Of a DNA stretch of 64,000 nucleotides, positions 1,984-57,041 are shown piece after piece. Below the pieces are notes generated by a model, which was not told the origin of the DNA, searched no databases, and saw only the letters and a list, made by a program, of their open reading frames with translations. This DNA is from Bacillota bacterium (GTDB lineage: Bacteria > Bacillota > Peptococcia > Peptococcales > BICA1-8): positions 250,243 through 314,242 of the forward strand of contig JBMOKT010000008.1 of assembly GCA_049323895.1 (NCBI GenBank), read 5' to 3'. Position 1 is the first letter of the stretch; each line of letters starts with the position of its first letter. The translations under genes and the position numbers were made by a program.

Positions 1984-3084
1984 TCAGCCCAGTCTATCCT
2001 TAATTAAAGTATTAAGTATTTCCACTCCATGGTTAAGGGCTTCAAGATTAAAGCTCATATCCTGGTGGTGCAGTCCAGGTTCCAGATCAGCTCCCAAACC
2101 GATATAGGCAGTCTTTATTTTCCCTTGTCGGGCATAGAAATGAAAATCCTCGCCACCGGGAGTTAATACAGGTCCCAGAGATTTGCCCAATACCTGTTGA
2201 ATAGCTTTTTGTGCATTTTCTACTAGCTCATGATGGTAATCAGCACCGGGGACTCCTCCCAAGATTTCTACCTCGGCCTCTGCACCTATGCTAGCCGCAC
2301 CATTTTGGACGGCATTTACGGTCTTTTCAATCAGAAGTTCCATAAGCTGGTTGCTTTGGGCCCTTAAATCAAAGACCAAGTGGGCAGTATCGGGAATTAT
2401 ATTAAATGCCTCCCCTCCCGCTGCCAGCTTTGTAGTTTTTATTGAGTGAGGGACTACGGGATTAACCCTAATGGCATTGATAGCGTGTACTATGTTTGCG
2501 GCAGCATCAATTACGTTTATCCCCAAATGGGGACGGGCTCCATGGGCTGCTTTCCCCTTTATTTGTGCCTTTATTACATAAGCAGAACCATGGCATAAGG
2601 CAGGGGTTGCCTCCCCCAGCTTAGCCTCCTGGATAGGGCGCAAATGTATGCCATACATTTCCTCTACATCATCTACAAAACCACTGTTCAGTATTAATTT
2701 AGCCCCCTGGAGAGTTTCCTCAGCAGGTTGAAAAACAATTTTTAAGCTCCCCCTGCCGATTCCTCTTTGAGCAGCTTCCAAAGCTGCCATTAAGACCATG
2801 GTACAGTTTGCATCATGACCACAGGCATGTATAACTTTAAGGTTCCCGTCAATTGTGAAGGGAAGAGCATCCATATCAGCCCGCAAGGCAACTACCGGTC
2901 CCGGCTCCTCCCCTTTAAAAACTCCTACAACTCCTGTGGAGTTGCCTGCATTCCTATACACCTTGAAACCCTTCTCTTCCAACGATTGAGCCAAATAGTT
3001 AGCAGTTTCCTTTTCCTCCATACCTAACTCAGGCATGGAATGGAGTTTCTCATATACTTTAATTATTTCCTCCAACCCTATCAC
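1984..3084 (-). CDS. M20-family amidohydrolase / aminoacylase
   Basis: 366 aa with the HACGHD metal-binding block and the QPAEE catalytic block typical of M20D amidohydrolases. Confidence 0.7.
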   Translation of the reverse strand: MIGLEEIIKVYEKLHSMPELGMEEKETANYLAQSLEEKGFKVYRNAGNSTGVVGVFKGEEPGPVVALRADMDALPFTIDGNLKVIHACGHDANCTMVLMAALEAAQRGIGRGSLKIVFQPAEETLQGAKLILNSGFVDDVEEMYGIHLRPIQEAKLGEATPALCHGSAYVIKAQIKGKAAHGARPHLGINVIDAAANIVHAINAIRVNPVVPHSIKTTKLAAGGEAFNIIPDTAHLVFDLRAQSNQLMELLIEKTVNAVQNGAASIGAEAEVEILGGVPGADYHHELVENAQKAIQQVLGKSLGPVLTPGGEDFHFYARQGKIKTAYIGLGADLEPGLHHQDMSFNLEALNHGVEILNTLIKDRLG

Positions 3085-3145
3085 CTGTTTCTAAAATATA
3101 CTTGTATAAGTATAACAACAAATAAAAATATAGTTCAACCCTTTT

Positions 3146-4759
3146 TTATAAGGTAGTATGGGGTGGAATAGGAGCGGAAACTTTAACATCTATAAGGGAA
3201 GGCTTATTGGAAGCAAAAGCCTCTTTTAAAACATTATCCAGTTGGACTGCTTCAGTTACTTGATAGCCTTCCCAACCACAGCCTTGGGCAACTAATTTAA
3301 AATCGGGGTTATAAAGATTTGTACCGGTTTGACTGATACCGGCAACAATCATTCTGTTTCTTTCCATGGAAAGGGAACTGTTATTAAAGACGACTGTCTT
3401 AACATTAATTCCCCGTTCCACGGCTGTCACCATTTCACCCATGGACATGGTCAAGCCCCCGTCACCTACCAGTGCAATAACCTGGCGCTCAGGAAACTCC
3501 AGCTTAGCAGCCAAAGCAGCCGGCAGCCCAAAGCCCATACTCCTCCATGAACCCGAAATCAAAGGAATTTGCTGCTGACCTTGAAAAACCTTATCAAACC
3601 ATAACACATGCTCGCCAACATCAAGGGCAATTACTGCATCTGCAGCCGCGTTTCCTTCAACAGAAGAAACAAGCCTCTGGGGTAGAATGGGGTTAACATC
3701 TGAATTAACCTCTTGCTCCAGATCATTAATCCATTTTTCCCGAACTGTTTTAACTTTTTCTACCCACCTGCGATTCGGCTTTCCTTCAAACATATCACGA
3801 AGAATAGATAATGACTTTTCAATACAACCCTCTATACCAACACTGATTTTATCTTGAAGCCCTAAATTCTCTAATATGCCATCCAATTGTATAATGGAAA
3901 TCTTCTTTGGTACAAACCTTTCAGGCCACCAGGTTGAACCAATGGTCAACAGACAGTCGGCTTCTTCTAGTAACATAGATGCGCCATTGCTTCCAGCTAA
4001 TCCTAGACCGCCCACCAAATAATTAAAATCCCTGGAAATAATCCCTTTAGCCGGCAAAGAGTAGGTTATGGCAGCACCTAATTGTTCTGACCATTTTTCT
4101 ATCATTTGTCCTTTGCCCCGGGCTCCCCTGCCTATTAAAAACATAGGTTTTTTCGCCTGCCGTAAAAGCTGAACCGCCCTTTGCAAGCCCTGTTCATCAG
4201 GCATTTTGTGTGCGGCAAAAATGGAATCTTGAGGACGGGGCTCCTGGGTACAGGGCTTAGTAAAAATATCCTTTGGCACTGCTATGTGAGAGACAGTACC
4301 TTGAACCATGGAGGTTTGCAAAGCCCTATAAATTAACTCCACCGTAGGTTGGGGATCGGTCAAAAGGGCTGAATACTTAGCTAATGGCTGGATTAATATC
4401 TTTTCATCTATATATTGTTTATAACCTGTTCCAATGTATTTTGTCGGTACTTGGCCCGTAATGGCAATTACAGGAACTTTGTCAGAATAGGCATCTCCTA
4501 GACCGTTAATTAAATTAGCGGTTCCGGGACCTGAGGTCGCTGTACATACAGCAACCCTCCCTGTTAGCTTTGCTTCAGCTGATGCCATAAAGGCCGCAGC
4601 ACTTTCGTGCCTTGCTTGTACATATTCTATTTGGGGATGCCTGTTAATAGCGTCTAAAAATGTTAAAATGGCATCACCAGCATAACCGTAAATTCTTTTC
4701 ACCCCCCACGAAGCTAACTGGTCTAAAATTGCATCGGCTACTGTTCTTTTAACTGGCAT
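3146..4759 (-). CDS. thiamine-pyrophosphate-dependent enzyme (acetolactate synthase / pyruvate oxidase superfamily)
   Basis: 537 aa. N-terminal TPP-pyrimidine domain (ILDQLASWGVKRIYGYAGDAIL) and the C-terminal GDGG..(24)..NN TPP-binding motif (LVGDGGLTMSMGEM...VVFNNSS). Confidence 0.75.
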   Translation of the reverse strand: MPVKRTVADAILDQLASWGVKRIYGYAGDAILTFLDAINRHPQIEYVQARHESAAAFMASAEAKLTGRVAVCTATSGPGTANLINGLGDAYSDKVPVIAITGQVPTKYIGTGYKQYIDEKILIQPLAKYSALLTDPQPTVELIYRALQTSMVQGTVSHIAVPKDIFTKPCTQEPRPQDSIFAAHKMPDEQGLQRAVQLLRQAKKPMFLIGRGARGKGQMIEKWSEQLGAAITYSLPAKGIISRDFNYLVGGLGLAGSNGASMLLEEADCLLTIGSTWWPERFVPKKISIIQLDGILENLGLQDKISVGIEGCIEKSLSILRDMFEGKPNRRWVEKVKTVREKWINDLEQEVNSDVNPILPQRLVSSVEGNAAADAVIALDVGEHVLWFDKVFQGQQQIPLISGSWRSMGFGLPAALAAKLEFPERQVIALVGDGGLTMSMGEMVTAVERGINVKTVVFNNSSLSMERNRMIVAGISQTGTNLYNPDFKLVAQGCGWEGYQVTEAVQLDNVLKEAFASNKPSLIDVKVSAPIPPHTTL

Positions 4760-10919: not shown

Positions 10920-11916
10920 TGCTTTCATACTTCTTAATTCCCCAATAGGCTAGTACTAAAAATACTAAATTAATTGTCATATTCCAGCCAAATATGGGCA
11001 GCAGTTCCCCCCATGTGCCTGATTCCCAAAATATGCTGCGGTAGCCGGCAAAGGTCCAATAGGTAGGTACCCAATACAGGAAGTATTCCTTGCTTCTGGG
11101 TATAAAAACAGTTATCAAAGGAATAACAATAAAAAACATGCTTCCTATTTTAGTATTTGCCAGGGCTGTTAGTTGGTTATTGCTAATGGCACCTATCATA
11201 ATGCCGAATAATGTGCTTAAAAAAACTCCTCCTAAGGTTATCAGCAGCAACTGCAGCCAGTTGACTTCAATACCCAGGATTAAGATTATTAATACCACCA
11301 TTATAAAGGCAATTCCCATCCCCAATAGAGTTTTACCCATTAGATATTCAACATTGGTCAGAGGAGTGACATAAAGGGCCTGACGGGTCTTAAACTCTTT
11401 TTCCTCGGTTAAAGCAAACCCGGTCAGCATACCCCCTATCATTAAAGGAAAAATGCACAATAATATGGCAGTCATCATATAAACCGGCTGTTTAGGTTTG
11501 TTTAGGTTTATCTGCCCAACCTGGGCTCCCTCCAAAGATCCCGATAGCTTATTTGTCACAGCACCGGCTAATTCAAGTACAGCCTTATCTTCATTACCCT
11601 CTGCAATAATAGTAAAGGATTTCCCTTCCTGTTTTTCCGCAATAATCCCTACCGCATCATCCCACCTTAAGACACGCTCCTTCATTTCCTCTGAAGTATC
11701 TACATATTCTACCTGGGCTAACTCCTGGATTGGCGACATGCTGTTCTTATCTTGTTCCAGAAGTACTACATCAAAAGAATTGGCTGAAAGTACCGGAAGA
11801 AAAAAACGCATCAAGAGAGCAAGAATTAATGGGGCTAAGAGGGCATAAAGAAAAATATTGTCTCGTAAACCATTTCGAAAGTCCTTACCGATTAAAACAG
11901 CTATTCTATTAAACAT
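10912..11916 (-). CDS. ABC-2 type exporter permease
   Basis: 334 aa. One N-terminal TM helix, a large loop, then a C-terminal cluster of 5 TM helices. Last gene of the marR-ATPase-permease-permease operon. Confidence 0.7.
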   Translation of the reverse strand: MFNRIAVLIGKDFRNGLRDNIFLYALLAPLILALLMRFFLPVLSANSFDVVLLEQDKNSMSPIQELAQVEYVDTSEEMKERVLRWDDAVGIIAEKQEGKSFTIIAEGNEDKAVLELAGAVTNKLSGSLEGAQVGQINLNKPKQPVYMMTAILLCIFPLMIGGMLTGFALTEEKEFKTRQALYVTPLTNVEYLMGKTLLGMGIAFIMVVLIILILGIEVNWLQLLLITLGGVFLSTLFGIMIGAISNNQLTALANTKIGSMFFIVIPLITVFIPRSKEYFLYWVPTYWTFAGYRSIFWESGTWGELLPIFGWNMTINLVFLVLAYWGIKKYESRA

Positions 11917-15381: not shown

Positions 15382-16644
15382 CTATTTACCAACCTCTCTG
15401 ATAAGGTTGTTTTTATCATCAAATCTAATTTCTTGGGCCTGTTCAACTATTTCCAGGTTTTGATTCTCCCGTATCTCATCTAACAGACTTTCCGAACAAT
15501 ACATTTCATCTAAAAATAAAGTATTTTTAATAATTGCTATTTTTGCCTTGGTAATATCCTTAAGGTGTAAGGTCTTAAGGCTAGTTTCCATAATCTCTTT
15601 ATGGGAATTTAAAATAACAGGAATCATACCCCTCTGCACAAAACCTGTAGTAAGGCAGTTTAAATAGGTTGTATGGTAATCAATTTTATCAAAAAGCCTT
15701 TTTGTAATAAAATCAGCCAAACCTATGCCGTTGGCATTGCCATAGGAGGCATCAGTTAAATCCAAAACTGCAATCCGTTTATATACTGGTTTTTCGGGCT
15801 CGGGTACTCCCTGGATACGCCATCTTCCAATAACATTTGTATCCATACCTGTACCGCTGTAATTTTTACCCATTGCTTCTATCACTAATAAATCCAGGTT
15901 ATCAAAAGGGATTTTAGGCATTAATTCTTTAGCATATTGCAGCAGGTCAATTTCAGCATCCTCAAATTCTCCGGGCAGAAGACCTTTTAGCAATGCTGTT
16001 TCTTCATAACCGTTTTCTACTATGGCTATACCGGCTAGGACTTTGGTTTCCTGCCTTACTACCCGCGACAACTCTAAAATAATTTCGCCTATTACATCAG
16101 GACCTTGTGAATGTATTGCCTCAGCACCTGGTGCTCGGCCTAAACCAATGCCCAGCATTTTTAGAAGCCCAGACTCCCTTGGAGCCCGAAAGGCAGTATG
16201 GGGCTTAATACGGTTAATAACAATAATCCCATCTGCCTGAGCGGCCTCTTTGGCACAATATACAGGTATCTGGTGGGTAGGAGTTGAACCTAGTAATACT
16301 ACCTCCGCTGAAGCAAGGACAGGGCAGCCCATTGATTCCTGGGTTACTCCCAGATGGGCCAGGATTTCTCTCTGCCCCTCTCCCGTTCCGCCCCCATGGC
16401 TGCCCATAGCTGAAACAATAACGGGATTGCCACCTTTTTCCTTGATAAATTCCACTACAGCGACATAAATTTTGTCTATGCCGTTAATACCCCGGCTTCC
16501 TCCTGTAATGGCAATAGTCTTATTTTGCAACTTATCCGCCAGGCTTAATTTCTCTAATTCTTCTTTTACTGCCTGCAATACTTTCTCCAGTCGGGGTCTG
16601 GGCAAATGCTGTTTTATCTTCAGCATTTTTGGCAAACCATGCAA
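15382..16644 (-). CDS. LarA-like (DUF2088-type) protein of unknown specificity
   Basis: 420 aa. Blocks ITGGSRG, SAMGSHGGG and ADGIIVINRIKPHTAF..G..K line up loosely with LarA blocks but lack its canonical residues. TTG start directly after the TRAP permease stop (TAATTG). Confidence 0.35.
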   Translation of the reverse strand: MHGLPKMLKIKQHLPRPRLEKVLQAVKEELEKLSLADKLQNKTIAITGGSRGINGIDKIYVAVVEFIKEKGGNPVIVSAMGSHGGGTGEGQREILAHLGVTQESMGCPVLASAEVVLLGSTPTHQIPVYCAKEAAQADGIIVINRIKPHTAFRAPRESGLLKMLGIGLGRAPGAEAIHSQGPDVIGEIILELSRVVRQETKVLAGIAIVENGYEETALLKGLLPGEFEDAEIDLLQYAKELMPKIPFDNLDLLVIEAMGKNYSGTGMDTNVIGRWRIQGVPEPEKPVYKRIAVLDLTDASYGNANGIGLADFITKRLFDKIDYHTTYLNCLTTGFVQRGMIPVILNSHKEIMETSLKTLHLKDITKAKIAIIKNTLFLDEMYCSESLLDEIRENQNLEIVEQAQEIRFDDKNNLIREVGK

Positions 16645-21958: not shown

Positions 21959-22019
<61 letters not shown>

Positions 22020-28033: not shown

Positions 28034-28109
28034 CGCGGGATAGAGCAGCTGGCAGCTCGTCGGGCTCATAACCCGGAGGTCGGAGGTTCAAATCCTCCTC
28101 CCGCAACCA
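28034..28109 (+). tRNA. initiator tRNA-Met (anticodon CAT)
   Basis: CGCGGGATAGAGCAGC..TCGGGCTCATAACCCGG..GGTTCAAATCC..CCCGCAACCA. It has a C1:A72 mismatch, three G:C pairs at the base of the anticodon stem, and an encoded CCA. Confidence 0.9.
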
Positions 28110-28916: not shown

Positions 28917-29077
28917 GGTGACTAGTGACTAGTGACTGGTGACTAGTCAATTGGATAGTTTGAAAAATTTAAGAATTCGATAGTGCAAATCTTAGGGTAT
29001 AGCTTATTGGTTAGTTTAATAAACTCTTTCACTTTTTCACTCTTTCACTAATAATTTCTGTAGCTACTGTAGCTACT
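28917..29077 (+). repeat. mosaic island C: (GTGACTA/G)x4, GATAGTTTGAAA words, (CTCTTTCACT)x3, (CTGTAGCTACT)x2
   Basis: gtgactagtgactagtgactggtgacta 28918-28945; ctctttcactttttcactctttcact 29024-29049; ctgtagctactgtagctact 29058-29077. Confidence 0.85.
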
Positions 29078-33572: not shown

Positions 33573-33917
33573 TTAAATTTCTTCAGCAAATCTTTCATCC
33601 CCTGGCCCCGGGGTCAGGGTGACATATAAGGATAATTCCTCTCCTCCGTCATTTACCAGACTGACCATTTCATTTTCCTGGTAAATCATTACCTGCCCAA
33701 CCTCTGCATCAATTGATACATTGTCGGCAGTAAATTTACCTTTGCCCTTAAGAATCTGGATAATTGTTACCATTCCTGGGTGGTTATGACTTGGCAAAGA
33801 TTGACCGGGCTTGAAATTAAGTACGAAGGCTAACACATCCTTATCCCTGTAAACAATCTTTTTTGTTAAAAACTTATCGGAATAAACCATTTTTTCTTTC
33901 AAGTTAAGTATTTGCAT
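33573..33917 (-). CDS. cupin-domain protein
   Basis: 114 aa with the cupin motif PSHNHPG. GAGGAGGG SD. The start overlaps the end of fprA, suggesting translational coupling. Confidence 0.7.
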   Translation of the reverse strand: MQILNLKEKMVYSDKFLTKKIVYRDKDVLAFVLNFKPGQSLPSHNHPGMVTIIQILKGKGKFTADNVSIDAEVGQVMIYQENEMVSLVNDGGEELSLYVTLTPGPGDERFAEEI

Positions 33918-35115
33918 TTTTTCCCTCCTCTATGTTCAGCAGTTTTTTTCCAAACAACTTCCCAAAATGTTCACACTCTTCTATTTCATCAATAGAAGGT
34001 TCATATTTTATTTTTTTCCCCTCCAGGACAACTTCTATTCCTGCTTCCTTAAGTTCCCGTTCAAGAATAGCAACTCCCTCTCCGCTCCAGCCATAGGAAC
34101 CAAAAGCTGCCCCTACTTTACCCTTAAACTTAAGCCCTTTAATCATTTCTAAAATAGCGGCAGTATCTGAGAGAATGCCATTATTAATGGTTGAACTGGC
34201 AACCATTATCCCTTTTGACTTAAAAACCTCGGCGATTAAATCATTTCTATCGGATTTACCAATATTAAATGTCTTGGCAGGTACACCTGCATTTTCCAAT
34301 CCGCGGGCAATTGCCAAGGCCATTCTCTTTGTTGCCCCCCACATAGTATTATACAGAATTGTAACTCCACCCTCATGGTAATTGGAAGCCCATTCATAAT
34401 ATTTCTCTATTATCTGCAGAGGATTTTCCCTCCAGATCACACCGTGGCTGGGGGCAATCATCTTAATCGGTAAATTTAAACTTTTAACCTCTTCTACCTT
34501 ACTTCTAACCAGCTTACTAAAAGGTGTTAAAATATTGGCATAATACTTTAGGGCCTCCTGGAAAAGCTCGCATTGGTCTACCTGGTCATTATAAAAATGG
34601 GGTGTTGCATAGTGCTGTCCAAAAGCATCGTTTGACAACAAAACATCTGCCCCTTGAACATAAGTCATCATTGAATCAGGCCAATGGAGCATCGGCGCTT
34701 CCACAAAAATCAGCTTATATTCCCCTAAATCTAAAGTGTCACCAGTCTTAACAATTTGAAAATTCCAATCCCTGTGAAAATGTTTTTTTATCATCTGAGC
34801 ACCGTTCTTAGTACAATAAATTGGTGTACCTGGTATTTGTTCCATTAGATGTGCCAGGCTTCCGCCGTGGTCTACTTCAGTATGATTAATTACGATTAAA
34901 TCAATATTTTTAAGTCCTACATTTTTGTCCAATGCATCAACATACTGTTCCTTAAAGGGGGTCCACACAGTGTCTATGAGAGCAGTTTTTTTATCTCTGA
35001 CCAAATAAGAATTATATGTGGAGCCACGGTGGGTTGAGTACTCTTCTCCATGAAAAAGTTTGATTTCCCAATCCTTAATACCTACCCAGTAAATGTTTCT
35101 ACTGATTTCAAGCAT
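33904..35115 (-). CDS. fprA: flavodiiron protein (FprA-type O2/NO reductase)
   Basis: 403 aa. Metallo-beta-lactamase-like di-iron motif NHTEVDHGG plus a C-terminal flavodoxin domain. Confidence 0.85.
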   Translation of the reverse strand: MLEISRNIYWVGIKDWEIKLFHGEEYSTHRGSTYNSYLVRDKKTALIDTVWTPFKEQYVDALDKNVGLKNIDLIVINHTEVDHGGSLAHLMEQIPGTPIYCTKNGAQMIKKHFHRDWNFQIVKTGDTLDLGEYKLIFVEAPMLHWPDSMMTYVQGADVLLSNDAFGQHYATPHFYNDQVDQCELFQEALKYYANILTPFSKLVRSKVEEVKSLNLPIKMIAPSHGVIWRENPLQIIEKYYEWASNYHEGGVTILYNTMWGATKRMALAIARGLENAGVPAKTFNIGKSDRNDLIAEVFKSKGIMVASSTINNGILSDTAAILEMIKGLKFKGKVGAAFGSYGWSGEGVAILERELKEAGIEVVLEGKKIKYEPSIDEIEECEHFGKLFGKKLLNIEEGKNANT

Positions 35116-35501: not shown

Positions 35502-35530
35502 TTGACTCTGTTATATATTACATCTATACT
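35502..35530 (+). promoter_or_regulatory. sigma-A-like promoter of the T-box leader
   Basis: TTGACT 35502-35507, a 17-nt spacer, TATACT 35525-35530. Confidence 0.6.
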
Positions 35531-35539
35531 ATTCTTAAA

Positions 35540-35812
35540 TATTATAACAACTGTGAAAGAGAAAAGTAGTCTTAACTTGGGGTTTACAGAGAGCCGGGGA
35601 TGCTGGAAACCGGCAACAACATGTAAGATGAAGTTCCCTCCGGAGTTGTCCACTGAACAATAGTAGGTGCGACCGGAAACTTCCACCGTTAACAGGAAGG
35701 GGATATTAAGGTGTTCTTGACACTGCGTATCCTATTAAGCTGGGTCACGTTTGACCAACTAAGGTGGTACCGCGGGTAACCTCTCGTCCTTATAGGGATG
35801 AGAGGTTTTTTG
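35540..35812 (+). promoter_or_regulatory. T-box leader RNA (tRNA-sensing riboswitch) with terminator
   Basis: Stem I elements: AGAGAAAAGUAG, the AG bulge ACAGAGAGCC and the distal loop GGGGAUGCUGGAAACCGGC. T-box sequence AAGGUGGUACCGCGG at 35761-35775. Terminator AACCUCUCGUCC-UUAUA-GGGAUGAGAGGUU plus a U-run at 35778-35812. Confidence 0.9.
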
Positions 35813-35825
35813 TTTTGTTTTTCAC

Positions 35826-35875
35826 GTAGGACGGCAGGATTGGGCAGGATGGCAGGATGGGTAGGATGGGCTTAT
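35826..35875 (+). repeat. degenerate tandem GGCAGGAT(G/T) repeat
   Basis: ggcaggattgggcaggatggcaggatgggtaggatggg, directly after the T-box terminator. Confidence 0.8.
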
Positions 35876-35985
35876 ATTCCTTTGAGAGGAAGGTGTTAAA
35901 GTTTCCCGTAAAACAAAAAATCAGAAAATTACAAGACACCTCTTCTCAACTACTTTTTTAAGAATTCAAGGAGGATCAACAGAAA

Positions 35986-36117
35986 ATAAGTATTCCATTA
36001 ACAATTGTCCTTATATACATCGGGGTTTTATATATAATATCCTGGTATTCTACCAGACTTTCCAAAAATAGCGGTTTAGTAGGTAATTATCCCAAAAAAA
36101 TGCACCTTGTATGTTAA
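35986..36117 (+). pseudogene. possible remnant of the T-box-controlled gene: a 43-codon hydrophobic ORF with a strong SD but no canonical start
   Basis: AAGGAGGA at 35968-35975, then ATA AGT ATT.. encoding ISIPLTIVLIYIGVLYIISWYSTRLSKNSG.. with a stop at 36115. The ..WYSTR.SKN.. pattern resembles the N-terminus of sodium:solute symporters (PutP/OpuE-like). This resemblance is judged by eye only. Confidence 0.3.
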
Positions 36118-36155
36118 CCCCTGCTTAACATATGTGGTGCACTTTTAATGCTGGT

Positions 36156-37091
36156 TTATTTTATTTCAAAGCTTTTAATATGTGGCACACGGCTGAGGTT
36201 GGCTATTTCATAAAAAGGGATTAGCACTGTAATAGGGTCTACTGAGGTAATCTGGTAGCCAAGCTGCTTTAAATCCTCCATGGCTGCGTTTTGGTCCCCC
36301 TTAACACTAATCTGGACAGATATAACCTGCTCTGCTTTTCCTTTCATAAGTATTTCTTTTATCTTTTGATTGGTTTCATCCCCATATAATCCTTCCATAG
36401 CCGGCAGGCTGATACCGTCAAACTTGTATCTTTCACTGTTCCAGATAAAACCGCCGTCATCAGCCGCTAGATTATATTTGAAATCCACATACCCTTTTTG
36501 GAATAAGAGATTTATTTCCCCGCCTTTTCTTTTTACTCCCACATACCTGGCATCATAAAAAATTATATTTGAAAACTCTCCTTGCCTTTCTTTAGGAACA
36601 ACTTCCATAACTTTTGCCAGGGCATCCCCCAAGGTAACCTTATCAAGGAGAGATCCATCTTTATACGCTTCTAAAATATCAACCTGATTAGCCTGTGGGT
36701 CTCGATTTTCATTAAAATTACGGGCAACAATAGTGTAACCATGGTTCCTGACAGCCTTATCCGCAGGATTTAACCCTTGTGCATCAGCATAAACATGACC
36801 ATAGTAATTATTTAATAAACCGTTCTCAATTTTTTCCATTGGTATATATTTTTGTGCAAAAATAAATAAAAGCAAAACAATACAGATATTAATACCCACA
36901 TATTTAAACTTCCTGTCACGTCCGAATGCTAATTCAGCGGCTGTAGTAAATCCGGCTGCAATAAGCATAAAAACAGGATAAACGACAACCCACCCCATCA
37001 AATAATCGTCATAGACATAAATCCAAGCCCCAATGTTTAAAAGTAATAGGACAGGAATGGTAATCCAGCGGGAAAATTTAGGAACCTTCAT
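36156..37091 (-). CDS. hypothetical membrane-anchored protein
   Basis: Start at MKVPKFSRW (AGAGGTG SD). Three N-terminal TM helices and a soluble C-terminal domain of about 210 aa with no motif I recognise. Confidence 0.5.
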   Translation of the reverse strand: MKVPKFSRWITIPVLLLLNIGAWIYVYDDYLMGWVVVYPVFMLIAAGFTTAAELAFGRDRKFKYVGINICIVLLLFIFAQKYIPMEKIENGLLNNYYGHVYADAQGLNPADKAVRNHGYTIVARNFNENRDPQANQVDILEAYKDGSLLDKVTLGDALAKVMEVVPKERQGEFSNIIFYDARYVGVKRKGGEINLLFQKGYVDFKYNLAADDGGFIWNSERYKFDGISLPAMEGLYGDETNQKIKEILMKGKAEQVISVQISVKGDQNAAMEDLKQLGYQITSVDPITVLIPFYEIANLSRVPHIKSFEIK

Positions 37092-37940: not shown

Positions 37941-38363
37941 TTAATTCAACCCTAAGGTTTTCTCAATATCTAAAAGCAACAAGAGCCGGTCTTTATACTT
38001 ACCAACCCCCTCTATGAATTTCCTCTCTACCGCTTCGGTAAATTCAGGGTTTTCAATATCTTCTTCTTTAAGCCTGATAACCTCTGTTACATTATCAACA
38101 GTTATGCCAACAGTAATATCGTCTTTATTTAAAATTATCACCCTGGACTGGTCTGTCAGCTTTTCCTCCGAATTGGCAAATCTTTTGTGGAGATTAATAA
38201 CAGGGACCACTACTCCCCTTAAATTGATAACACCTTTAATAAAATTTGCAGTCTTAGGTACTCTGGTAACATTGGTGGGTCTAATAATCTCCCTTACATC
38301 ATTAATTCTTACCGCATATTCTTCCTGACCCAGTCTGAAAGCAACCAATTGTCTTTCTACCAT
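37941..38363 (-). CDS. cheW: chemotaxis coupling protein CheW
   Basis: 140 aa with a CheW-like domain (QLVAFRLGQEEYAV..IINLRGVVVPVINL). Confidence 0.9.
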   Translation of the reverse strand: MVERQLVAFRLGQEEYAVRINDVREIIRPTNVTRVPKTANFIKGVINLRGVVVPVINLHKRFANSEEKLTDQSRVIILNKDDITVGITVDNVTEVIRLKEEDIENPEFTEAVERKFIEGVGKYKDRLLLLLDIEKTLGLN

Positions 38364-38375
38364 AAGTGTTCCCCC

Positions 38376-40355
38376 CTAAAATAAGGTTGTAATATCCAGG
38401 ATTAAAGACACTTTTCCGTCACCTAGTATTGCAGCCCCTGCAATTCCAGGAATTCCATTTAAAAACTTTCCTAAAGAACTGATTACAATTTCCTGCTGCC
38501 CAATCAATTCATTTACAATTAAACCGAGCAGTTTGTCATTCTTTTTAACTACTACAACGTACAATTCATTATCCGTCAGATTTTCCAGATTTGGAACTCG
38601 CAAAACTTTACCCAGCCGTACCAGAGGAAGGACATTGTTTCTTAAAACCATGACTTCCTGGTCTTGAACCTTTTTAATCTCGCCTAAATCTATACTAGTA
38701 GTTTCATTAATATTAGCCAGCGGTATGGCGTAGATTTCTTCTCCTATCTTCACCATAAGGGCCTGGATAATTGCTAGTGTAAGAGGAAGCTTGATAGTAA
38801 AACGGGTTCCTTGTCCCTCTCTTGTTTCAACAGCAACTTGTCCCTTTAAGGCTTGGATTTTAGATCGTACAACATCTAGTCCCACTCCTCTCCCGGAAAG
38901 GTCTGTAATCTGACTGGCAGTACTAAAACCTGGGGAGAAGATAATATTTACAATTGCATTTTCATCCATTTGCTCTAATTGACTTTGGGTAAACAAACCC
39001 TTCTCCAAAGCTTTCTTTTTGATAGCTGTTACATTTAGACCCTGTCCATCATCTTCCACCATAATAACAATAGAATTACCTTCCTGCTTAGCTGTCAGGC
39101 GTAAGGTGCCCTGGGGGGACTTGCCTTTTTTTTGTCTTTCTGCGGAGCTTTCAATACCATGGTCTATAGAGTTGCGCAGGAGATGAACTAAAGGGTCAGA
39201 AATTTCATCTATCACTGTACGATCTAATTCTGTTTCCTTACCCTCCATTATTAGGTTTATCTCTTTCCCCAGTTCCTTTGTGACATCCCTTACCATACGA
39301 GGGAATCTATTAAAAACCTGTTCGATTGGAACCATTCGTACATCCATAACAACTGCCTGTAAATCGGAAGATATCCTGTCAATCTGTTCAGCCGTCTCAT
39401 TTAAAGCTGTTAAATCATTGGTTTTAAAAATTTGTTCTAATCTTGTTTTGTTTATTACCAATTCCCCTACTAAATTCATAAGACGGTCCAGTTTACCAAT
39501 ATCCACTCGAACTGTCTGGCTAATCTTATTACTTCCGCCTTGCTTTTTGGCGTCCTGCTCCTTCTCGGAGCTTGCGGGGTTTTCTATTTTAGTCCCCTCT
39601 CCATCAATCTGTGCCTTTGGTTCATAAACGGTGCTAAGGGCCTTGATTTCGGTAATTTGCACTTCACTTATTTGATCAATTACTTTTCTTACTTCAGCTT
39701 CTTTCCCTGTAGTAATTAATATAACGGTAAATTGGTTGTCAAACTTCTCATCTTCAATATCCTGAACAGATGGGATGGATTTTATTATTTCTCCCAGCTT
39801 CTCTAAATTGTTAAACACCATAAAAGCCCGGACGGCTTTCATGATGCAATCGGGAACAATACTTACAGTTATTTGAAAACTGTTTAACTGTTTTTCCTGG
39901 GCGGTCTTTATAGCATGATGGTCATAATCGTTCAACTCAACCTTGTTATAATCTGCAGTCGTTAAACTTGCTTCTGCAGAAGGGTCAAAATTTTGTAGTC
40001 TGTTTAAAAGATTGGAAATATTATAACCTTCCACATTCTTTGCTGCCACATTTTCAACCATTATTTCAAGGGCATCGACACAGTTAAAGAGAATTTCACC
40101 AATCTCCGGGTTAAAGGCAAATTTATCCTCCCTCAATTCATCTAACATATTCTCCATCTTATGGGTTAATTCAGCTATTTTTTCAAAACCCATGGTTGCC
40201 GACATTCCTTTTAATGTATGGGCAGACCTGAATATTTCATTTACTGCATCCTTATTCTGCGCATCCTGCTCTAATTTTAATAATTCTTGGTTTAAAATTT
40301 GCAAATGTTCCCTTGATTCTTCTAAAAATAAGTTTAAATATTCACTAATACTCAT
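38376..40355 (-). CDS. cheA: chemotaxis histidine kinase CheA
   Basis: Hpt H-box FRSAHTLKGMSATMGF, kinase N/G1/G2 boxes (HLLRNSIDHGIE, DDGQGL, GRGVGLD) and a C-terminal CheW-like domain. Confidence 0.95.
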   Translation of the reverse strand: MSISEYLNLFLEESREHLQILNQELLKLEQDAQNKDAVNEIFRSAHTLKGMSATMGFEKIAELTHKMENMLDELREDKFAFNPEIGEILFNCVDALEIMVENVAAKNVEGYNISNLLNRLQNFDPSAEASLTTADYNKVELNDYDHHAIKTAQEKQLNSFQITVSIVPDCIMKAVRAFMVFNNLEKLGEIIKSIPSVQDIEDEKFDNQFTVILITTGKEAEVRKVIDQISEVQITEIKALSTVYEPKAQIDGEGTKIENPASSEKEQDAKKQGGSNKISQTVRVDIGKLDRLMNLVGELVINKTRLEQIFKTNDLTALNETAEQIDRISSDLQAVVMDVRMVPIEQVFNRFPRMVRDVTKELGKEINLIMEGKETELDRTVIDEISDPLVHLLRNSIDHGIESSAERQKKGKSPQGTLRLTAKQEGNSIVIMVEDDGQGLNVTAIKKKALEKGLFTQSQLEQMDENAIVNIIFSPGFSTASQITDLSGRGVGLDVVRSKIQALKGQVAVETREGQGTRFTIKLPLTLAIIQALMVKIGEEIYAIPLANINETTSIDLGEIKKVQDQEVMVLRNNVLPLVRLGKVLRVPNLENLTDNELYVVVVKKNDKLLGLIVNELIGQQEIVISSLGKFLNGIPGIAGAAILGDGKVSLILDITTLF

Positions 40356-40382
40356 CTTTTACCCCCTAGAAATCAAATTAGG

Positions 40383-40853
40383 TTAGGCTGCTCTTTTCTC
40401 TGCAGATATATTGATGGTTATTTTTGCCCCTTCAAAAATATTAACCGGTACACAAATCATTTGTTCCTTTTGAGTAATCACAATATTACTACCCTCTAAA
40501 ACAGTGGGGCTGGTTATGTTAATGGCTATTCCCTGATTTGCAAAAAGGGTGGCCGTAGTGCCTAAAATCATATTGCACAGTTCACTGACGGCACTCTTTG
40601 AAAGCTCATTAAATTCAACATCCATACCACCCATCATTTGGGAGGCTATATTTACACAACTAACCTTATCAATGTTTATTATTACTTTTCCATTCATTTC
40701 TCCCGTTACACCAATAATAATTAGTAGCTCCTCTTGGCTATTTACAGGCGTATCTTTTACATAGGCTTTTTCAAAGGCCGGCATTGTACCCAAAACCTGG
40801 GTGACAATATCACTGGTGGCCTTTAAAAATGGATTAATATATTTAACATTCAT
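40383..40853 (-). CDS. cheX: CheX/CheC-family chemotaxis phosphatase
   Basis: 156 aa. N-terminus MNVKYINPFLKATSDIVTQVLG is typical of CheX. Located in the che operon. Confidence 0.7.
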   Translation of the reverse strand: MNVKYINPFLKATSDIVTQVLGTMPAFEKAYVKDTPVNSQEELLIIIGVTGEMNGKVIINIDKVSCVNIASQMMGGMDVEFNELSKSAVSELCNMILGTTATLFANQGIAINITSPTVLEGSNIVITQKEQMICVPVNIFEGAKITINISAEKRAA

Positions 40854-40993
40854 TGTTATTTACACTCCTTTAATTATGTATTACTAAATAGCATTCCTGG
40901 AGGCAGCCTGGCAATCTTAGCATATAACCTTAGACCCTAGGCTTTGCGTCCTGCCCTTTCGAACAGTTTGCCCTTATTGTAAATAATTGATTT

Positions 40994-48000: not shown

Positions 48001-48267
48001 GATAATACACTTTAAGTGGCTACAATTGTTATAGTGCTACAGTGCTACCGAAAAATACTAAAAGGTTATTTACTATGAAAGCTGCACATTCATGGTCACA
48101 CTTTCTTTTACTATCACACTATCAAACTATCAAACTATCGCACTCACAAACTACCAGCACTAGCCACTAGCCACTAACAACTAGCCACTGTTTTTTACCA
48201 GTCACCAGTCACCAGTCACCAGTCACCAGTCACCAGTCACCAGTCACCAGTCACCAGTCACCAGTCA
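48001..48267 (-). repeat. mosaic island D between addA and sbcD, inverted orientation, ending in (CCAGTCA)x10
   Basis: gtgctacagtgctacc 48034-48049; ctatcacactatcaaactatcaaactatcgcactcacaaactacc 48111-48155; cactagccactagccactaacaactagccactg 48158-48190; a perfect 70-nt heptamer array at 48198-48267 abutting the addA TAG stop. Confidence 0.9.
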
Positions 48268-51200
48268 CTATAATTGTATCGCTTTACCTAGACTAAACAA
48301 ATACAAATATCTTTCTTTAACCTTTTCCTTAGTTATAGTCTCTACAGCTCTGGTATAAAGGTTTATTTGCCCGGAGTACCTATCGATAAACCCTGAGAGG
48401 TCTTCATCCTTTATTTGGTCACTTTTATAATCAATTAAAACCCAGCCTCCATCCTCATACCACATGCAGTCAATTACCCCTTGCAGTAATACTTTATCAG
48501 AGGTATCGGTCCCAATATCATCATAAATCTCCTGAACATCCAAGGTTAAACTGAAGGGAATTTCCCTTTCTGCCCTTTGGGCCCTTTTAAGTCTTTCCCC
48601 TAGAGAACTCTCAAAAAAGAGCAGGATATTTTCCTGGGGGATTGACTCTTTTTGTTCTGGAGTTAGTAACTCCCTGCTTAATAAATCCTCCAGAAACATC
48701 TCCAGGTATTGCCCGGTGATTTTCTGATGTAATGGAATATGCTGCATCACACAATGGATAGCAGAGCCTTTTTCTACAGCTGTCAAAGCCTTCTTCTTTT
48801 GAAGAAATACGGGGCGCCTTCTAAATCCTTGAAAAATCCTGTTTTCTTGTAAATCAAGCTGCACTTCCTGAAATTTATGCTTAATCTCGGTAACACTAAC
48901 TTTAGCCCCTTTGGTGCTTACCCCGGGAAAGGGGTATGTCCACTCCAGCTTTTCTGCAACCTGTCTATAAAGCTGGGGATCAATCTGTACCTGCTGTAAA
49001 TCCTTAATGCTTTCCAGCATTTCCCTGGTTGCTGCAACCTGCTCATCTTCCTGGACGTTTAATTCTTCTTGCAGAACGGCAATTTCCCACGCAGATTCAT
49101 CTTCCAGCAGGGAAATTGCCTGCTGTGGGACGAATCTACGCAAGGGGATGCCATCCCTGTGCCTGGTTAACGCAGGTCCAAGCCAATCCAAAAAGCTGTC
49201 GGCCTGGGCAAGGAAGCTGTCGGGAATTTTAACAGAGGGAATGTCTAAAAATTGAGCCCAGTCCTCAATTTGTTTCTGTACCTTTCTTACAGTACCAATC
49301 ATTATCAACTTTTCCCTGGCTCTGGTCATAGCTACGTAAAGTATGCGCATTTCTTCCGCCAAGGTCTCTAGCTTAACCTTAATATCTATGGCAAGTTTAG
49401 CAATTGTTGGATATTTAATCCTCTTCTCAGGATCGATAAAAACAGGTCCAAGACCTAAATCCTTATGCAGAGTAATATCTTGCCTGGTATCCAGCATGTT
49501 AAACTTTTTGCCCAGCCCGGCAATAATTACAACGGGAAATTCCAAGCCCTTGCTTTTATGGATACTCATAATACGGACGACGTTTTCGTTTTCACTAAGG
49601 GCTTTAGCCGCCTCTAAATCACTTTTATTTTCCTCCATTCTTTGCAGGAAACGGAGAAACATAAACAGCCCCTTGAAACTGGTTGTTTCAAATTGCCTGG
49701 CCCTGTCGTGGAGGGCCCGCAGGTTTGCCTGCCGCTGGCTTCCCCCGGCCATTGCACCTACATAATCGAAATAACCCGTTTCCCGATACAAAGTCCAAAT
49801 AAGGTTTGCCAGTTCATTCTGACGGGCCAGGGTTCTCCAGTTTTCCAGCCGGGACAGGAATCCTCCCAATTTTTCGGCTAATTGGTCCTTTGTTTTCTCG
49901 ACTGTTTGTAATATAGCCTGGTAAAAATCACCTTGAGGACAATGAAGTCGGATATTTGCCATCTCCTGGGAACTTAATCCCACTAGAGGCGAGCGAAGCA
50001 CCCCAGCCAAAGGGATATCCTGCCGGGGATTATCTATAATCTTTAATAAGGAAAGCATAATCTGTACTTCCGTAGCTTTAAAATATCCCCTTCCCAGTTC
50101 TCCATAAACAGGAATTCCCAGTAAACGGAACCTTTCCAGAAAGGTCTCTGCAGAACCTTTAGGTGAGCGTAGAAGGATAACAATATCTGAATAGGTAATG
50201 GTCCGATAGTCGTTTGTTTTTTTATCAAACACAAGACAATTCTGCTCTATTAGTTCCTTAATCCGATTACCTATTATAACCGCTTCCCGTTCTACGGAAG
50301 TCAGTTGCTCTGCCTCTTCCATATCTTTTTCTACTAAATAAAATTCTACCGGACCTGCCAAACCAGCTTGCCCTTGACATTCTGGGTAAACTACGCCGCA
50401 TCTGAGGCGAGCCTCCTGGTTATATTCTATCTCCCCTAAATCCTTGCCCATTAATTGCTGAAAAACAAAGTTTACTCCATCCACAATCTCCTTGCGGCAG
50501 CGGAAATTACTAGCTAAATCTATCCGCCGGTCTGCATATCCTTCCTTGTTTGCAAAGCGGTAATATTTTTCCTGGAAAAGTTCAGGCCTTGCCAGACGGA
50601 AGCGGTAAATACTCTGCTTCACATCACCCACCATAAAAAGATTATCAGGACGGGAAACAAGCTGTAATATGGTTTCTTGAACGTCATTAATATCCTGGTA
50701 CTCATCAACTAAGACTTGGGAGTACTTTTCCTGGAGCTTCATGCTGACGGCAGAAGGTATTATCTGTTCAGGAGTTGAATTTGTTGCCATTAACAGTTGG
50801 AGACAGTAATGCTCTAAGTCATTGAAATCCATAATGTTTCGCCGTATCTTGGCCTTGGCATACTCTTCCTTAAACTCCATAACTAAGCGTCCGAGAAGCT
50901 CCAAATAAGGTTGTACAATTACTAAATCATTAATAAAGTCCTGGGGTAAACGATGAAAATATTTATTCTGCAGTCCTTTCAATATATCTTTGGCCTTATC
51001 TCTAAAGTATTTTACCTTTTCCTGCAGCTCCGGATTACTTTCTTCTTTTTTTGCCCTAGGCAGCCTGCCAAAGGCCGCAGTGGATGCCGCATCGTAGGCT
51101 TCCTTCCAGGAAAGGGATGCTGCATTTAATATATCTTCCAAGAGATAAATTTCCTCTTGAAGTGTAGCAATATAAGCGGCAGGTCCTCCCGGTGCCCCTG

Positions 51201-56705: not shown

Positions 56706-57041
56706 GGTAAAGGTAAGCTATTAGGTTAATTTTTCCGTCAGGAAAAGATACACTTTGGGGCTAAATATTCCGTCAGGTATAGAAAAACACCAGTTTGATA
56801 GTGTGATAGTTTGAAAGTTTGATAGTATAATACGTGTCACAATGATTGTCTAGCTTATAGGACGTGACATCGTGTCGCCGTGACATCGAATATCAGCACC
56901 CAATAGTTCTGGGGCTACTGTAGCTACTGTATTTATTTTACCTTTACCTGTCCCAAAAAATATACCCGGAAGCTTACCTCTACCTGTCATGCAGAGTCGC
57001 TTTATAGCTTACCTGACATGCAGTATACCTCCATAGCTCAA
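56706..57041 (+). repeat. mosaic island G between the convergent ecsC and rnhA genes, with GGTAAAGGTAAGCT / AGCTTACCT.TACC inverted termini
   Basis: aaaggtaagctattaggt 56709-56726 (identical to 10608-10625); ttccgtcagg x2; gtttgatagtgtgatagtttgaaagtttgatagt; gtctagcttataggacgtg 56848-56866; cgtgacatcgtgtcgccgtgacatcg; ctactgtagctactgt; agcttacctctacctgtcatgcag 56971-56994; agcttacctgacatgcag 57006-57023. Confidence 0.85.

Follow-up and report, generated by a model that had tools for sequence, protein, structure and literature searches.

As far as we know, T-box leaders are regarded as acting in cis on genes for proteins that charge tRNAs or that make or import amino acids. Here, we describe a complete T-box leader with no such gene behind it, on the plus strand of a 64,000-nucleotide stretch of contig JBMOKT010000008.1 from a Bacillota bacterium (assembly GCA_049323895.1; hereafter, the window). 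The leader has all the hallmark elements of the Phe-specific T-box leaders (Rfam family RF00230; for example, that of pheS), including a mutually exclusive antiterminator and terminator and an identical specifier segment. It differs from them in that no coding sequence follows, and in having a C on the 3' side of the specifier, which is also found in three pheS leaders (L017, L022 and L027; loci are cited by number throughout). Comparison with related loci indicates that the leader once headed a transporter gene of the sodium:solute symporter (SSS) family, and suggests that it may have been kept by selection as a stand-alone unit with a non-coding product.

Two other kinds of described system resemble parts of this locus. 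In tandem T-boxes, such as the trp, thrS and ilv-leu leaders, one gene has two complete T-boxes in front of it, as in two loci related to the window (L006 and L008). To our knowledge, there is no promoter between the two units of such tandem leaders. They are described as sensing identical ligands (survey PMC12452182; also PMC7583486), whereas the units of L006 and L008 are predicted to sense first Phe and then Tyr tRNA, and have separate promoter-like sites with a terminator-like hairpin between them; of the two, the window has kept the first alone. The second kind comprises non-coding RNAs that are gated by a riboswitch: in EutX/Rli55, an adenosylcobalamin riboswitch reportedly controls a sponge RNA for EutV, and the S-adenosylmethionine riboswitch leaders SreA and SreB are said to act in trans. 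In C. difficile, cyclic di-GMP (c-di-GMP) riboswitches lie before antisense RNAs or have no gene (PMC11477304). The window unit appears to be like these in that a complete riboswitch is followed by conserved non-coding sequence with repeats and a terminator-like end, and by no open reading frame (ORF), but it would sense a tRNA and is known from sequence alone. EutX/Rli55 and SreA/SreB would be its nearest functional analogies. No T-box with a non-coding output was found in the literature searched, the coverage of which was incomplete.

A complete T-box leader for tRNA-Phe

When the whole window was scanned against Rfam with cmscan, a single T-box match was found (RF00230, 132.0 bits, E 4.4e-29, against a gathering score of 93), which covered model positions 1–219 of 219 and was not truncated. 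An earlier note, made by reading the letters of this DNA, had claimed a complete T-box leader with a good promoter and a strong terminator, and both the covariance-model check that it named and the features below bear this out. The elements of the unit are as follows:

35502..35530, plus strand: promoter-like site P1, TTGACT-17-TATACT, matching 10 of 12 consensus positions
35544..35794, plus strand: full-length T-box leader, with Stem I (K-turn, specifier loop, AG bulge, distal loop), Stem II region, Stem III, and T-box sequence with antiterminator
35630..35637, plus strand: 3' side of the specifier loop, GAA-G-UUC-C, with specifier codon UUC (Phe) at 35634-35636, then the helix CUCC
35765..35768, plus strand: UGGU of the T-box bulge, from the covariance-model alignment; partner, the tRNA 3' end ACCA with discriminator base A73
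35778..35813, plus strand: intrinsic terminator of the T-box (term1), a 13-bp stem (35778-35807) followed by the T-run TTTTTGTTTT; -20.6 kcal/mol, z -6.2
35827..35870, plus strand: GGYAGNAYGG repeat array with four or five units, which read CGTAGGACGG, GGCAGGATTG, GGCAGGATGG, GGCAGGATGG and GGTAGGATGG
35882..35959, plus strand: terminator-like hairpin (hairpin2), a hairpin at 35882-35949 followed by CUAC and U6 (35954-35959); -17.9 kcal/mol, z -1.8

The hallmarks of Stem I were aligned at high posterior probability, namely the K-turn UGAA...GAG, the specifier-loop S-turn AAAAGUA/GAA, and the AG bulge (AGAGA) and distal loop (ACAGAGAG, GAUGCUGGAAA). The conserved T-box sequence AAGGUGGUACCGCG at 35761-35774 contains the UGGU, and the antiterminator pairs carried no mismatch flags in the RF00230 alignment. 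By an established rule, the UGGN of the T-box bulge pairs with the NCCA end of the tRNA (PMC7583486), and UGGU fits a discriminator base A73. (With RNAalifold on nine T-boxes, Stem I came out correctly and the 3' domain did not, and the Rfam alignments were used instead.) The window copy is as well preserved as those that still have a gene: it is changed at three of the 134 columns at which the other eight members of the family all agree, compared to two of 133 for intact-gene copies, and its score lies within the range of 120–143 bits for A-type orthologues (the first of the two T-boxes in tandem loci, see below). Together, these elements mark the leader as a genuine class-I (transcription-terminating) T-box, predicted to be specific for tRNA-Phe, with its own promoter-like site and terminator; what is missing is the regulated gene.

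The specifier had been left open in the earlier note, with AUG, GAA and GUU among the candidates. None of these was upheld by the covariance-model alignment, which, when the register was read by the usual rule (codon, one nucleotide, helix), gave UUC. A metagenome scan for GAAGTTCCCTCYGGAGTTGT returned 13 loci, seven of them with T-boxes, and in three (L017, L022 and L027) the first downstream ORF was clearly PheS. The segment GAAGUUCCCUC of the window specifier loop is identical in these pheS leaders, and the paralogous T-box B of L006 and L008 has GAA-A-UAC-A in the same register, a canonical Tyr specifier followed by a purine. Given this identity to the pheS leaders and the register set by T-box B, the window specifier is read as UUC (Phe), and GUU (Val) is ruled out on the same two grounds. 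The base 3' of the specifier is normally a conserved purine (PMC7583486), a preference from which the C after the window UUC departs, as does the same C in the three pheS leaders.

Phe (UUC) T-boxes of the same sequence family were also seen in other settings. One (L023 2880-3123, minus strand) lies before a different, 532-aa SSS-type transporter. Another (L024 6801-7057, plus strand) lies upstream of a 443-aa protein that by eye is amino-acid dehydrogenase-like and is followed by genes that look ABC-transporter-like; L024 also contains a group II intron domain (43-126).

Loss of the transporter gene

Past hairpin2, the window contains what is left of a transporter gene, and then the gene that converges on it:

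35968..35975, plus strand: Shine-Dalgarno sequence (SD) AAGGAGGA of the former transporter gene; an equivalent SD precedes the intact gene in L003, L006 and L008
35986..36084, plus strand: pseudogene stump, codons 1–33 of an SSS-family (PF00474) transporter by tblastn, with ATA in place of ATG
36085..36117, plus strand: deletion junction and unrelated tail of a 43-codon ORF, overlapping the convergent gene's terminator
36094..36146, minus strand: intrinsic terminator of the convergent gene, a hairpin with U7; -23.9 kcal/mol, z -4.7
36156..37091, minus strand: convergent gene, which encodes a 311-aa membrane protein without a Pfam family, 100% identical to MFZ5943105.1; used as a synteny anchor

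There is no plus-strand ORF of at least 60 aa between 35812 and 37239, where the next plus-strand gene lies, and none of at least 30 aa with a canonical start in the frame of the remnant. In tblastn searches with the SSS transporters of the syntenic loci, residues 1–33 matched 35986-36084 at 64–73% identity (E 3e-10 to 1e-6); the similarity stops at residue 33, and the rest of the transporter is absent from the window in any frame. The orthologues, which match PF00474, begin with MSIPL or MNIPL, and the window reads ATA-AGT-ATT-CCA-TTA, so that ATG has become ATA. The stump covers the first transmembrane helix with the motif SWYSTKLSK and aligns to residues 1–33 of the orthologues in the SSS family (PF00474/TIGR00813), but with more than 90% of the protein missing and no start codon it is not a functional member. 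(The 43-aa peptide gave nothing in a word-index homology search and no Pfam SSF match, the stump being too short.) The earlier reading of this region, namely that a sodium:solute symporter gene had been lost, that a strong SD followed by ATA and a piece resembling the first SSS transmembrane helix were left of it, and that no plus-strand gene follows, thus holds. Of the 43-codon remnant, however, only codons 1–33 derive from the transporter, while the last ten belong to the terminator region of the convergent gene. That terminator region also folds on the plus strand (-18.7 kcal/mol, z -3.1).

Comparison with the intact loci places the deletion at about 1.3–1.4 kb, comprising codons 34 to about 472 and the 3' untranslated region (UTR), with codon 33 now fused to the terminator of the convergent gene. 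By the same comparison, the ancestral T-box headed the leader of an SSS-family transporter gene, which in this genome was destroyed by the start-codon change and the deletion.

Tandem Phe and Tyr T-boxes in related loci

Relatives of the convergent 311-aa protein have 47–61% identity to it, and related contigs were fetched via these relatives. Comparing synteny, as had been proposed beforehand, located the intact gene at the matching site in three loci (L003, L006 and L008), where a PF00474 gene of 471–472 aa lies between the orthologous T-box and the same convergent 311-aa gene. The order in L003 is a 312-aa gene, a 471-aa PF00474 transporter on the opposite strand, the T-box, an acetyltransferase, a ferredoxin and FprA. 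L006 and L008 share this order, with two T-boxes before the one SSS transporter:

L006: Phe (UUC) T-box A at 2921-3172, then Tyr (UAC) T-box B at 3482-3733
L008: Phe (UUC) T-box A at 9465-9218, then Tyr (UAC) T-box B at 8993-8782

The leader in both starts with P1, T-box A, its terminator, repeats and a long hairpin with a U-run, and continues with a second promoter-like site P2 (TTGACT-17-TATAyT), T-box B, its terminator, more repeats, the SD and the transporter. TTGACT-17-TATAyT precedes every orthologous T-box in L006 and L008, so that each has its own site with 10 of 12 positions matched, and a terminator-like hairpin lies between the two units. The window has the items from P1 through the long hairpin and then directly the SD and the stump; T-box B is absent. 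The terminator segments of T-boxes A and B are identical within L006 and nearly identical within L008, which suggests that the two T-boxes are under concerted evolution.

Since the hairpin, P2 and the Tyr T-box intervene, the Phe unit of L006 and L008 seems to be transcribed on its own even though these loci have the intact gene. With a Tyr T-box that has its own promoter-like site nearer to the transporter, a Phe T-box would add little cis-control, which also speaks for an output of its own. Only one T-box is present in L003 (13962-13711, minus strand), in which the specifier loop GAAGUUACC equals the Phe-type loop GAAGUUCC with one inserted A, placing UAC (Tyr) in register. This one-base insertion is an apparent specifier switch from UUC to UAC.

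The repeat array and the second hairpin

Tandem Repeats Finder placed the array at 35828-35871 with a period of 8–9. The earlier note had taken the GGCAGGAT repeat for a repeat island tied to the deletion. It is not deletion debris, because all of the related loci have a GGYAGNAYGG array after the T-box terminator, and it is rather a conserved feature of the leader. YAGNAYGG units form a single cluster in the 64-kb window; in the other DNA that was fetched, clusters are confined to the leader after T-box terminators, always on the T-box strand (L001, L002, L003, L006, L008, L009, L011 and L019). The consensus of 47 repeat units is GG-Y-A-G-(G/T/A)-A-Y-G-G. The repeat core YAGGAYGG matches the beginning of the terminator 3' arm (35794-35807 in the window; likewise in L001, L003 and L011, for example UAGGACGG in L001 and CAGGACGG in L003), and is complementary to CCGUCCU, the strand common to the antiterminator and the terminator. 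The repeats may thus have arisen by slippage of the terminator 3' arm, or may compete for the CCGUCCU strand.

Several known kinds of repeat do not describe the array. GGA occurs in only 23 of the 47 units and position 6 can be G, T, A or C, which rules out an array of CsrA-binding sites; the period of 8–10 nt, rather than 5–7, rules out NAG repeats of the TRAP or HutP type; the middle GG is not conserved, as a G-quadruplex would require; and a genome-wide repeat family does not agree with one cluster in 64 kb and clusters elsewhere only in the T-box leader. By inspection, no small ORF in the repeat and hairpin region is common to the loci, and no Rfam family was found in 35790-36170.

Hairpin2 has orthologues in L006 (-35.8 kcal/mol, z -4.7), L008 (-30.1 kcal/mol, z -4.4), L001 (-17.1 kcal/mol, z -2.9), L009 (z -4.3) and L019 (z -2.9). 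Its outer stem, UUGAGAGGAAGG/CCUUUUCUCAA, is conserved, while the inner stem varies in sequence with the pairing kept. Five lineages have kept both the repeat array and hairpin2 with its U-run, and in L006 and L008 a separate promoter-like site follows them.

The window also contains many perfect tandem repeats of 7–8 nt, for example AGTGGCT (8.6 copies) and ACCAGTC (10.3 copies). Related heptamers (ctagtcactagtca) lie right after the T-box terminator in L001, L009 and L019, and AGTGGCT occurs inside the L018 T-box, so that such repeats look lineage-wide. Their positions in the window are:

594-676, 947-975, 21959-22018, 28918-28947, 48110-48268, 56792-56826 and others: short tandem repeats

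Gene-less T-boxes in a sister clade

Three further loci, L001 (BICA1-8), L009 and L019, have T-box A (126–130 bits) and neither a transporter nor a stump. P1 is also kept in these loci. They have common deletions that removed T-box B and the transporter, and the loss therefore predates their divergence. A fourth and more distant locus, L011, is on a contig that ends inside the T-box; what it shows of the T-box is the 3' end. Next come the terminator, some ten repeats and, on the T-box strand, a hairpin with a U-rich tail, after which the stop codon of the 311-aa gene is reached. By the identities of the 311-aa protein, L003, in which the gene is present, is closer to the L001 clade than either the window or L011 is. 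This points to at least three separate losses of the transporter, as judged from protein identities rather than from a formal tree.

In L001, L009 and L019, the promoter and T-box are 91.5–93.9% identical, compared to 68.4–70.5% at 263–281 four-fold degenerate sites from the flanking 311-aa, acetyltransferase and FprA genes (Fisher p 4e-13 to 2e-15). Where it can be aligned, the downstream non-coding DNA is 78–83% identical. The repeats and hairpin2 in this DNA are 73–87% invariant per 30-nt window, whereas the remnant of P2 falls to 33–57%, and hairpin2 still folds in all three.

A separate block of about 55 nt (CTTAACCTAGTGAGCCTTTGGCGAACGAAACCTCAACCTAGCGAAGCGAAACCTT; about 10945-11010 on the minus strand of L001, with equivalents in L009 and L019) is 93–97% invariant and thus as conserved as the T-box. 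It lies just before the bidirectional terminator and may derive from the 3' end or the UTR of the transporter.

A probable second transporter copy in the source genome

A search of the transporter family found MFZ5944588.1 (P0017), a protein of 472 aa that is 85% identical to the L006 transporter. It comes from a "Bacillota bacterium" metagenome-assembled genome (MAG) and lies 1,483 accession numbers from the window protein MFZ5943105.1, which is annotated "MAG: Bacillota bacterium". We infer from the shared accession block that the two belong to the same assembly, and an intact copy of the transporter very probably survives at another locus of this MAG, within an operon that has no T-box. In L012, the gene context of P0017 is IclR / FAD-oxidase (GlcD-like) / Fe-S CCG / LarA / SSS / acetate/butyrate kinase / PTA_PTB / ferredoxin / POR, and there is no T-box in this operon. 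The transporter is found in the same operon in BICA1-8 (L013) and in the sample that gave L009 (L029), and every orphan-bearing genome that could be checked has a transporter in the LarA/GlcD-like/POR operon. The SSS homologue is 80–90% identical to the T-box-linked copies in this conserved operon, which lies at:

L012, 2543-13786
L013, 5035-12718
L029, 1705-13249

The stump is identical to the T-box-linked orthologues at 21–24 of 33 residues and to the probable own-genome copy at 19 of 33 (57 of 99 nt). Assembly collapse is unlikely because the stump is nearer to the T-box-linked orthologues than to that copy.

NCBIfam places the orthologous transporters at the superfamily level only. The Phe and Tyr T-boxes, together with an operon of LarA, 2-hydroxyacid dehydrogenase and 2-oxoacid:ferredoxin oxidoreductase, suggest that the substrate may be an aromatic amino acid or an aromatic 2-hydroxy or 2-oxo acid. 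The conserved operon hints at a 2-hydroxy acid or an aromatic keto acid, and not a plain amino acid.

L012 also has a cobalamin riboswitch (16290-16472) before cbiMNQ.

A proposed stand-alone unit and its alternatives

We see an even chance that the window element is a stand-alone tRNA-Phe-gated unit that selection has kept and that makes a non-coding transcript with no protein target. A more specific version, to which we give somewhat less than even weight, is that the T-box is the sensor of a stand-alone riboregulator whose sole product is a non-coding RNA with the GGYAGNAYGG array, conserved across several Peptococcaceae-like lineages with or without the transporter. The promoter, T-box, terminator, array and second hairpin would make up a self-contained transcription unit. 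With charged tRNA-Phe, transcription would stop at 35807-35813 and yield a leader RNA of about 270 nt. Uncharged tRNA-Phe would pair with UUC and UGGU and the antiterminator would form, and read-through across the repeat array to the U6 of hairpin2 (about 35959) would give a non-coding RNA of about 420 nt with the repeats in its 3' part. One possible role of this RNA is as a decoy, drawing off a factor that in relatives binds these repeats in the transporter leader; another role in trans or in cis could also be envisaged. The gene-less versions in the L001/L009/L019 clade, in L011 and in the window count in favor of a stand-alone unit, as does the repeat array, which is locus- and strand-specific in every lineage. 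The conservation of the promoter and T-box in that clade points the same way, and so does the window T-box, which shows no decay next to a gene that has lost its start codon.

A number of observations weigh against such a unit. Selection on the T-box apart from a coding target is seen in the sister clade L001/L009/L019 only and not in the lineage of the window, the nearest relative of which is about 60% identical in the neighboring protein. All of the sources are MAGs and metagenome contigs, read as sequence. In the window, the SD of the transporter comes directly after hairpin2, which means that the transporter was once transcribed through hairpin2 and fits a plain cis-regulatory past. Hairpin2 itself is weak here, with a U-run that begins 4 nt past the stem, and may terminate poorly. 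The resemblance between the repeat core and the terminator 3' arm means that the repeats could be products of slippage. L003 has one T-box and no separate Phe unit, showing that the unit is dispensable in some lineages. Finally, the A and B terminator segments, being identical or nearly so within a genome, leave some room for gene conversion among paralogous T-boxes. The suggestion of the earlier note that an orphan leader may be kept for another role gains support from the conserved gene-less T-boxes of the relatives, and may hold for the window genome as well.

Less probable, although the main rival, is that the locus is a neutral relic, in which the transporter was lost as redundant and the T-box, repeats and hairpin have not yet decayed and make only a futile short transcript. 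The loss in the window need not be ancient, with the stump still as similar to its orthologues as described above and the SD intact, and there is no close relative from which to gauge the substitution rate of this lineage. The probable redundant copy elsewhere would explain why the loss was tolerated, and hairpin2 is weaker than in the relatives. However, the stump has a dead start codon and four to six more substitutions over its 33 residues than are seen when intact orthologues are compared with each other, set against three changes at 134 family-invariant columns in a T-box of 250 nt. Moreover, the three genomes with an older common loss keep a T-box that is five to six times more conserved than their four-fold sites, next to a promoter remnant that has decayed, and the further gene-less lineage L011 keeps the T-box 3' end, terminator and repeats.

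It is improbable that the T-box instead acts in cis on the convergent 311-aa gene, with read-through under Phe limitation running antisense into that gene or causing transcription to collide. The model for such an arrangement is the clostridial ubiG operon, which reportedly has an antisense RNA controlled by an S-box. The T-box does face the 3' end of the same 311-aa gene at every locus, from 0.3–0.45 kb away in the gene-less ones, and clostridia do have antisense RNAs under riboswitch control (PMC11477304). Before the gene is reached, however, there are two or three hairpins that look like terminators (term1, hairpin2 and a strong one at 36101-36146, which forms on the plus strand as well), and where the transporter is intact, 1.4 kb of coding sequence and a terminator lie in between, so that this cannot be the ancestral role.

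We give similarly little credence to gene conversion by paralogous Phe T-boxes, or recent recombination between strains, rather than selection, as the source of the conservation of gene-less T-boxes. The sign of concerted evolution in the tandem T-boxes of L006 and L008 is what such a process would leave, and the related Phe T-box of L024 is from the same sample as L019. L024 is no active donor, however, as it differs from the orphans at many positions, 7–10 of them in columns that are otherwise invariant in the family. Conversion also does not account for conservation that extends to the promoter, repeats and hairpin2 and leaves out the neighboring promoter remnant, and the differences among the three orphans lie, by eye, mostly in loops and variable segments.

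That a protein target remains, be it a transporter hidden by an assembly or frameshift error in this MAG contig, a small downstream protein, or a 43-aa membrane peptide started at ATA or ATT from the good SD and encoding one hydrophobic helix, is very improbable, given that the window holds no further part of the transporter in any frame, the deletion ends right at the convergent gene's terminator, the stump and the other genomic copy differ too much for a collapsed assembly to be likely, no small ORF of the repeat and hairpin region recurs from locus to locus, and L001, L009 and L019 lack any stump.

If the T-box is indeed under purifying selection with no coding target, the stand-alone unit would extend control by tRNA charging to an RNA output, and would point to a partner that reads the conserved GGYAGNAYGG array. 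On a conservative reading, the locus is a clean and datable case of a riboswitch outliving its gene when the genome has another copy of that gene. Further findings from the related loci are a pair of separately promoted Phe and Tyr T-boxes, the apparent one-base switch from UUC to UAC in L003, and an SSS subfamily tied to aromatic amino-acid status.

Flanking genes and other features

Upstream of the T-box, two genes serve to align the locus with its relatives, the ferredoxin and FprA neighbors being likewise found in L001, L003, L009 and L019:

35137..35331, minus strand: divergent ferredoxin gene (Fer4_13/Fer4_15), the second synteny anchor
33904-35115: flavodiiron (FprA-like) gene next to the ferredoxin gene (ODP and Flavodoxin_1)

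The window has a tRNA-Met (CAU) gene at 28034-28109 on the plus strand. By eye, near-identical-looking tRNA genes lie on the FprA side in L001, L003, L006, L009 and L019, so that synteny extends well beyond the T-box.

On the other side of the locus, a c-di-GMP-I riboswitch (40899-40982, minus strand, 71 bits) lies directly upstream of a CheX/CheC-like gene (40383-40853), followed on the same strand by cheA-like (38376-40355) and cheW-like (37941-38363) genes. The CheX/CheC label was carried over from the Pfam match of the equivalent 156-aa gene in L003, and cheA and cheW were named by eye. The region 37941-40982 thus appears to be a chemotaxis operon under the control of c-di-GMP.

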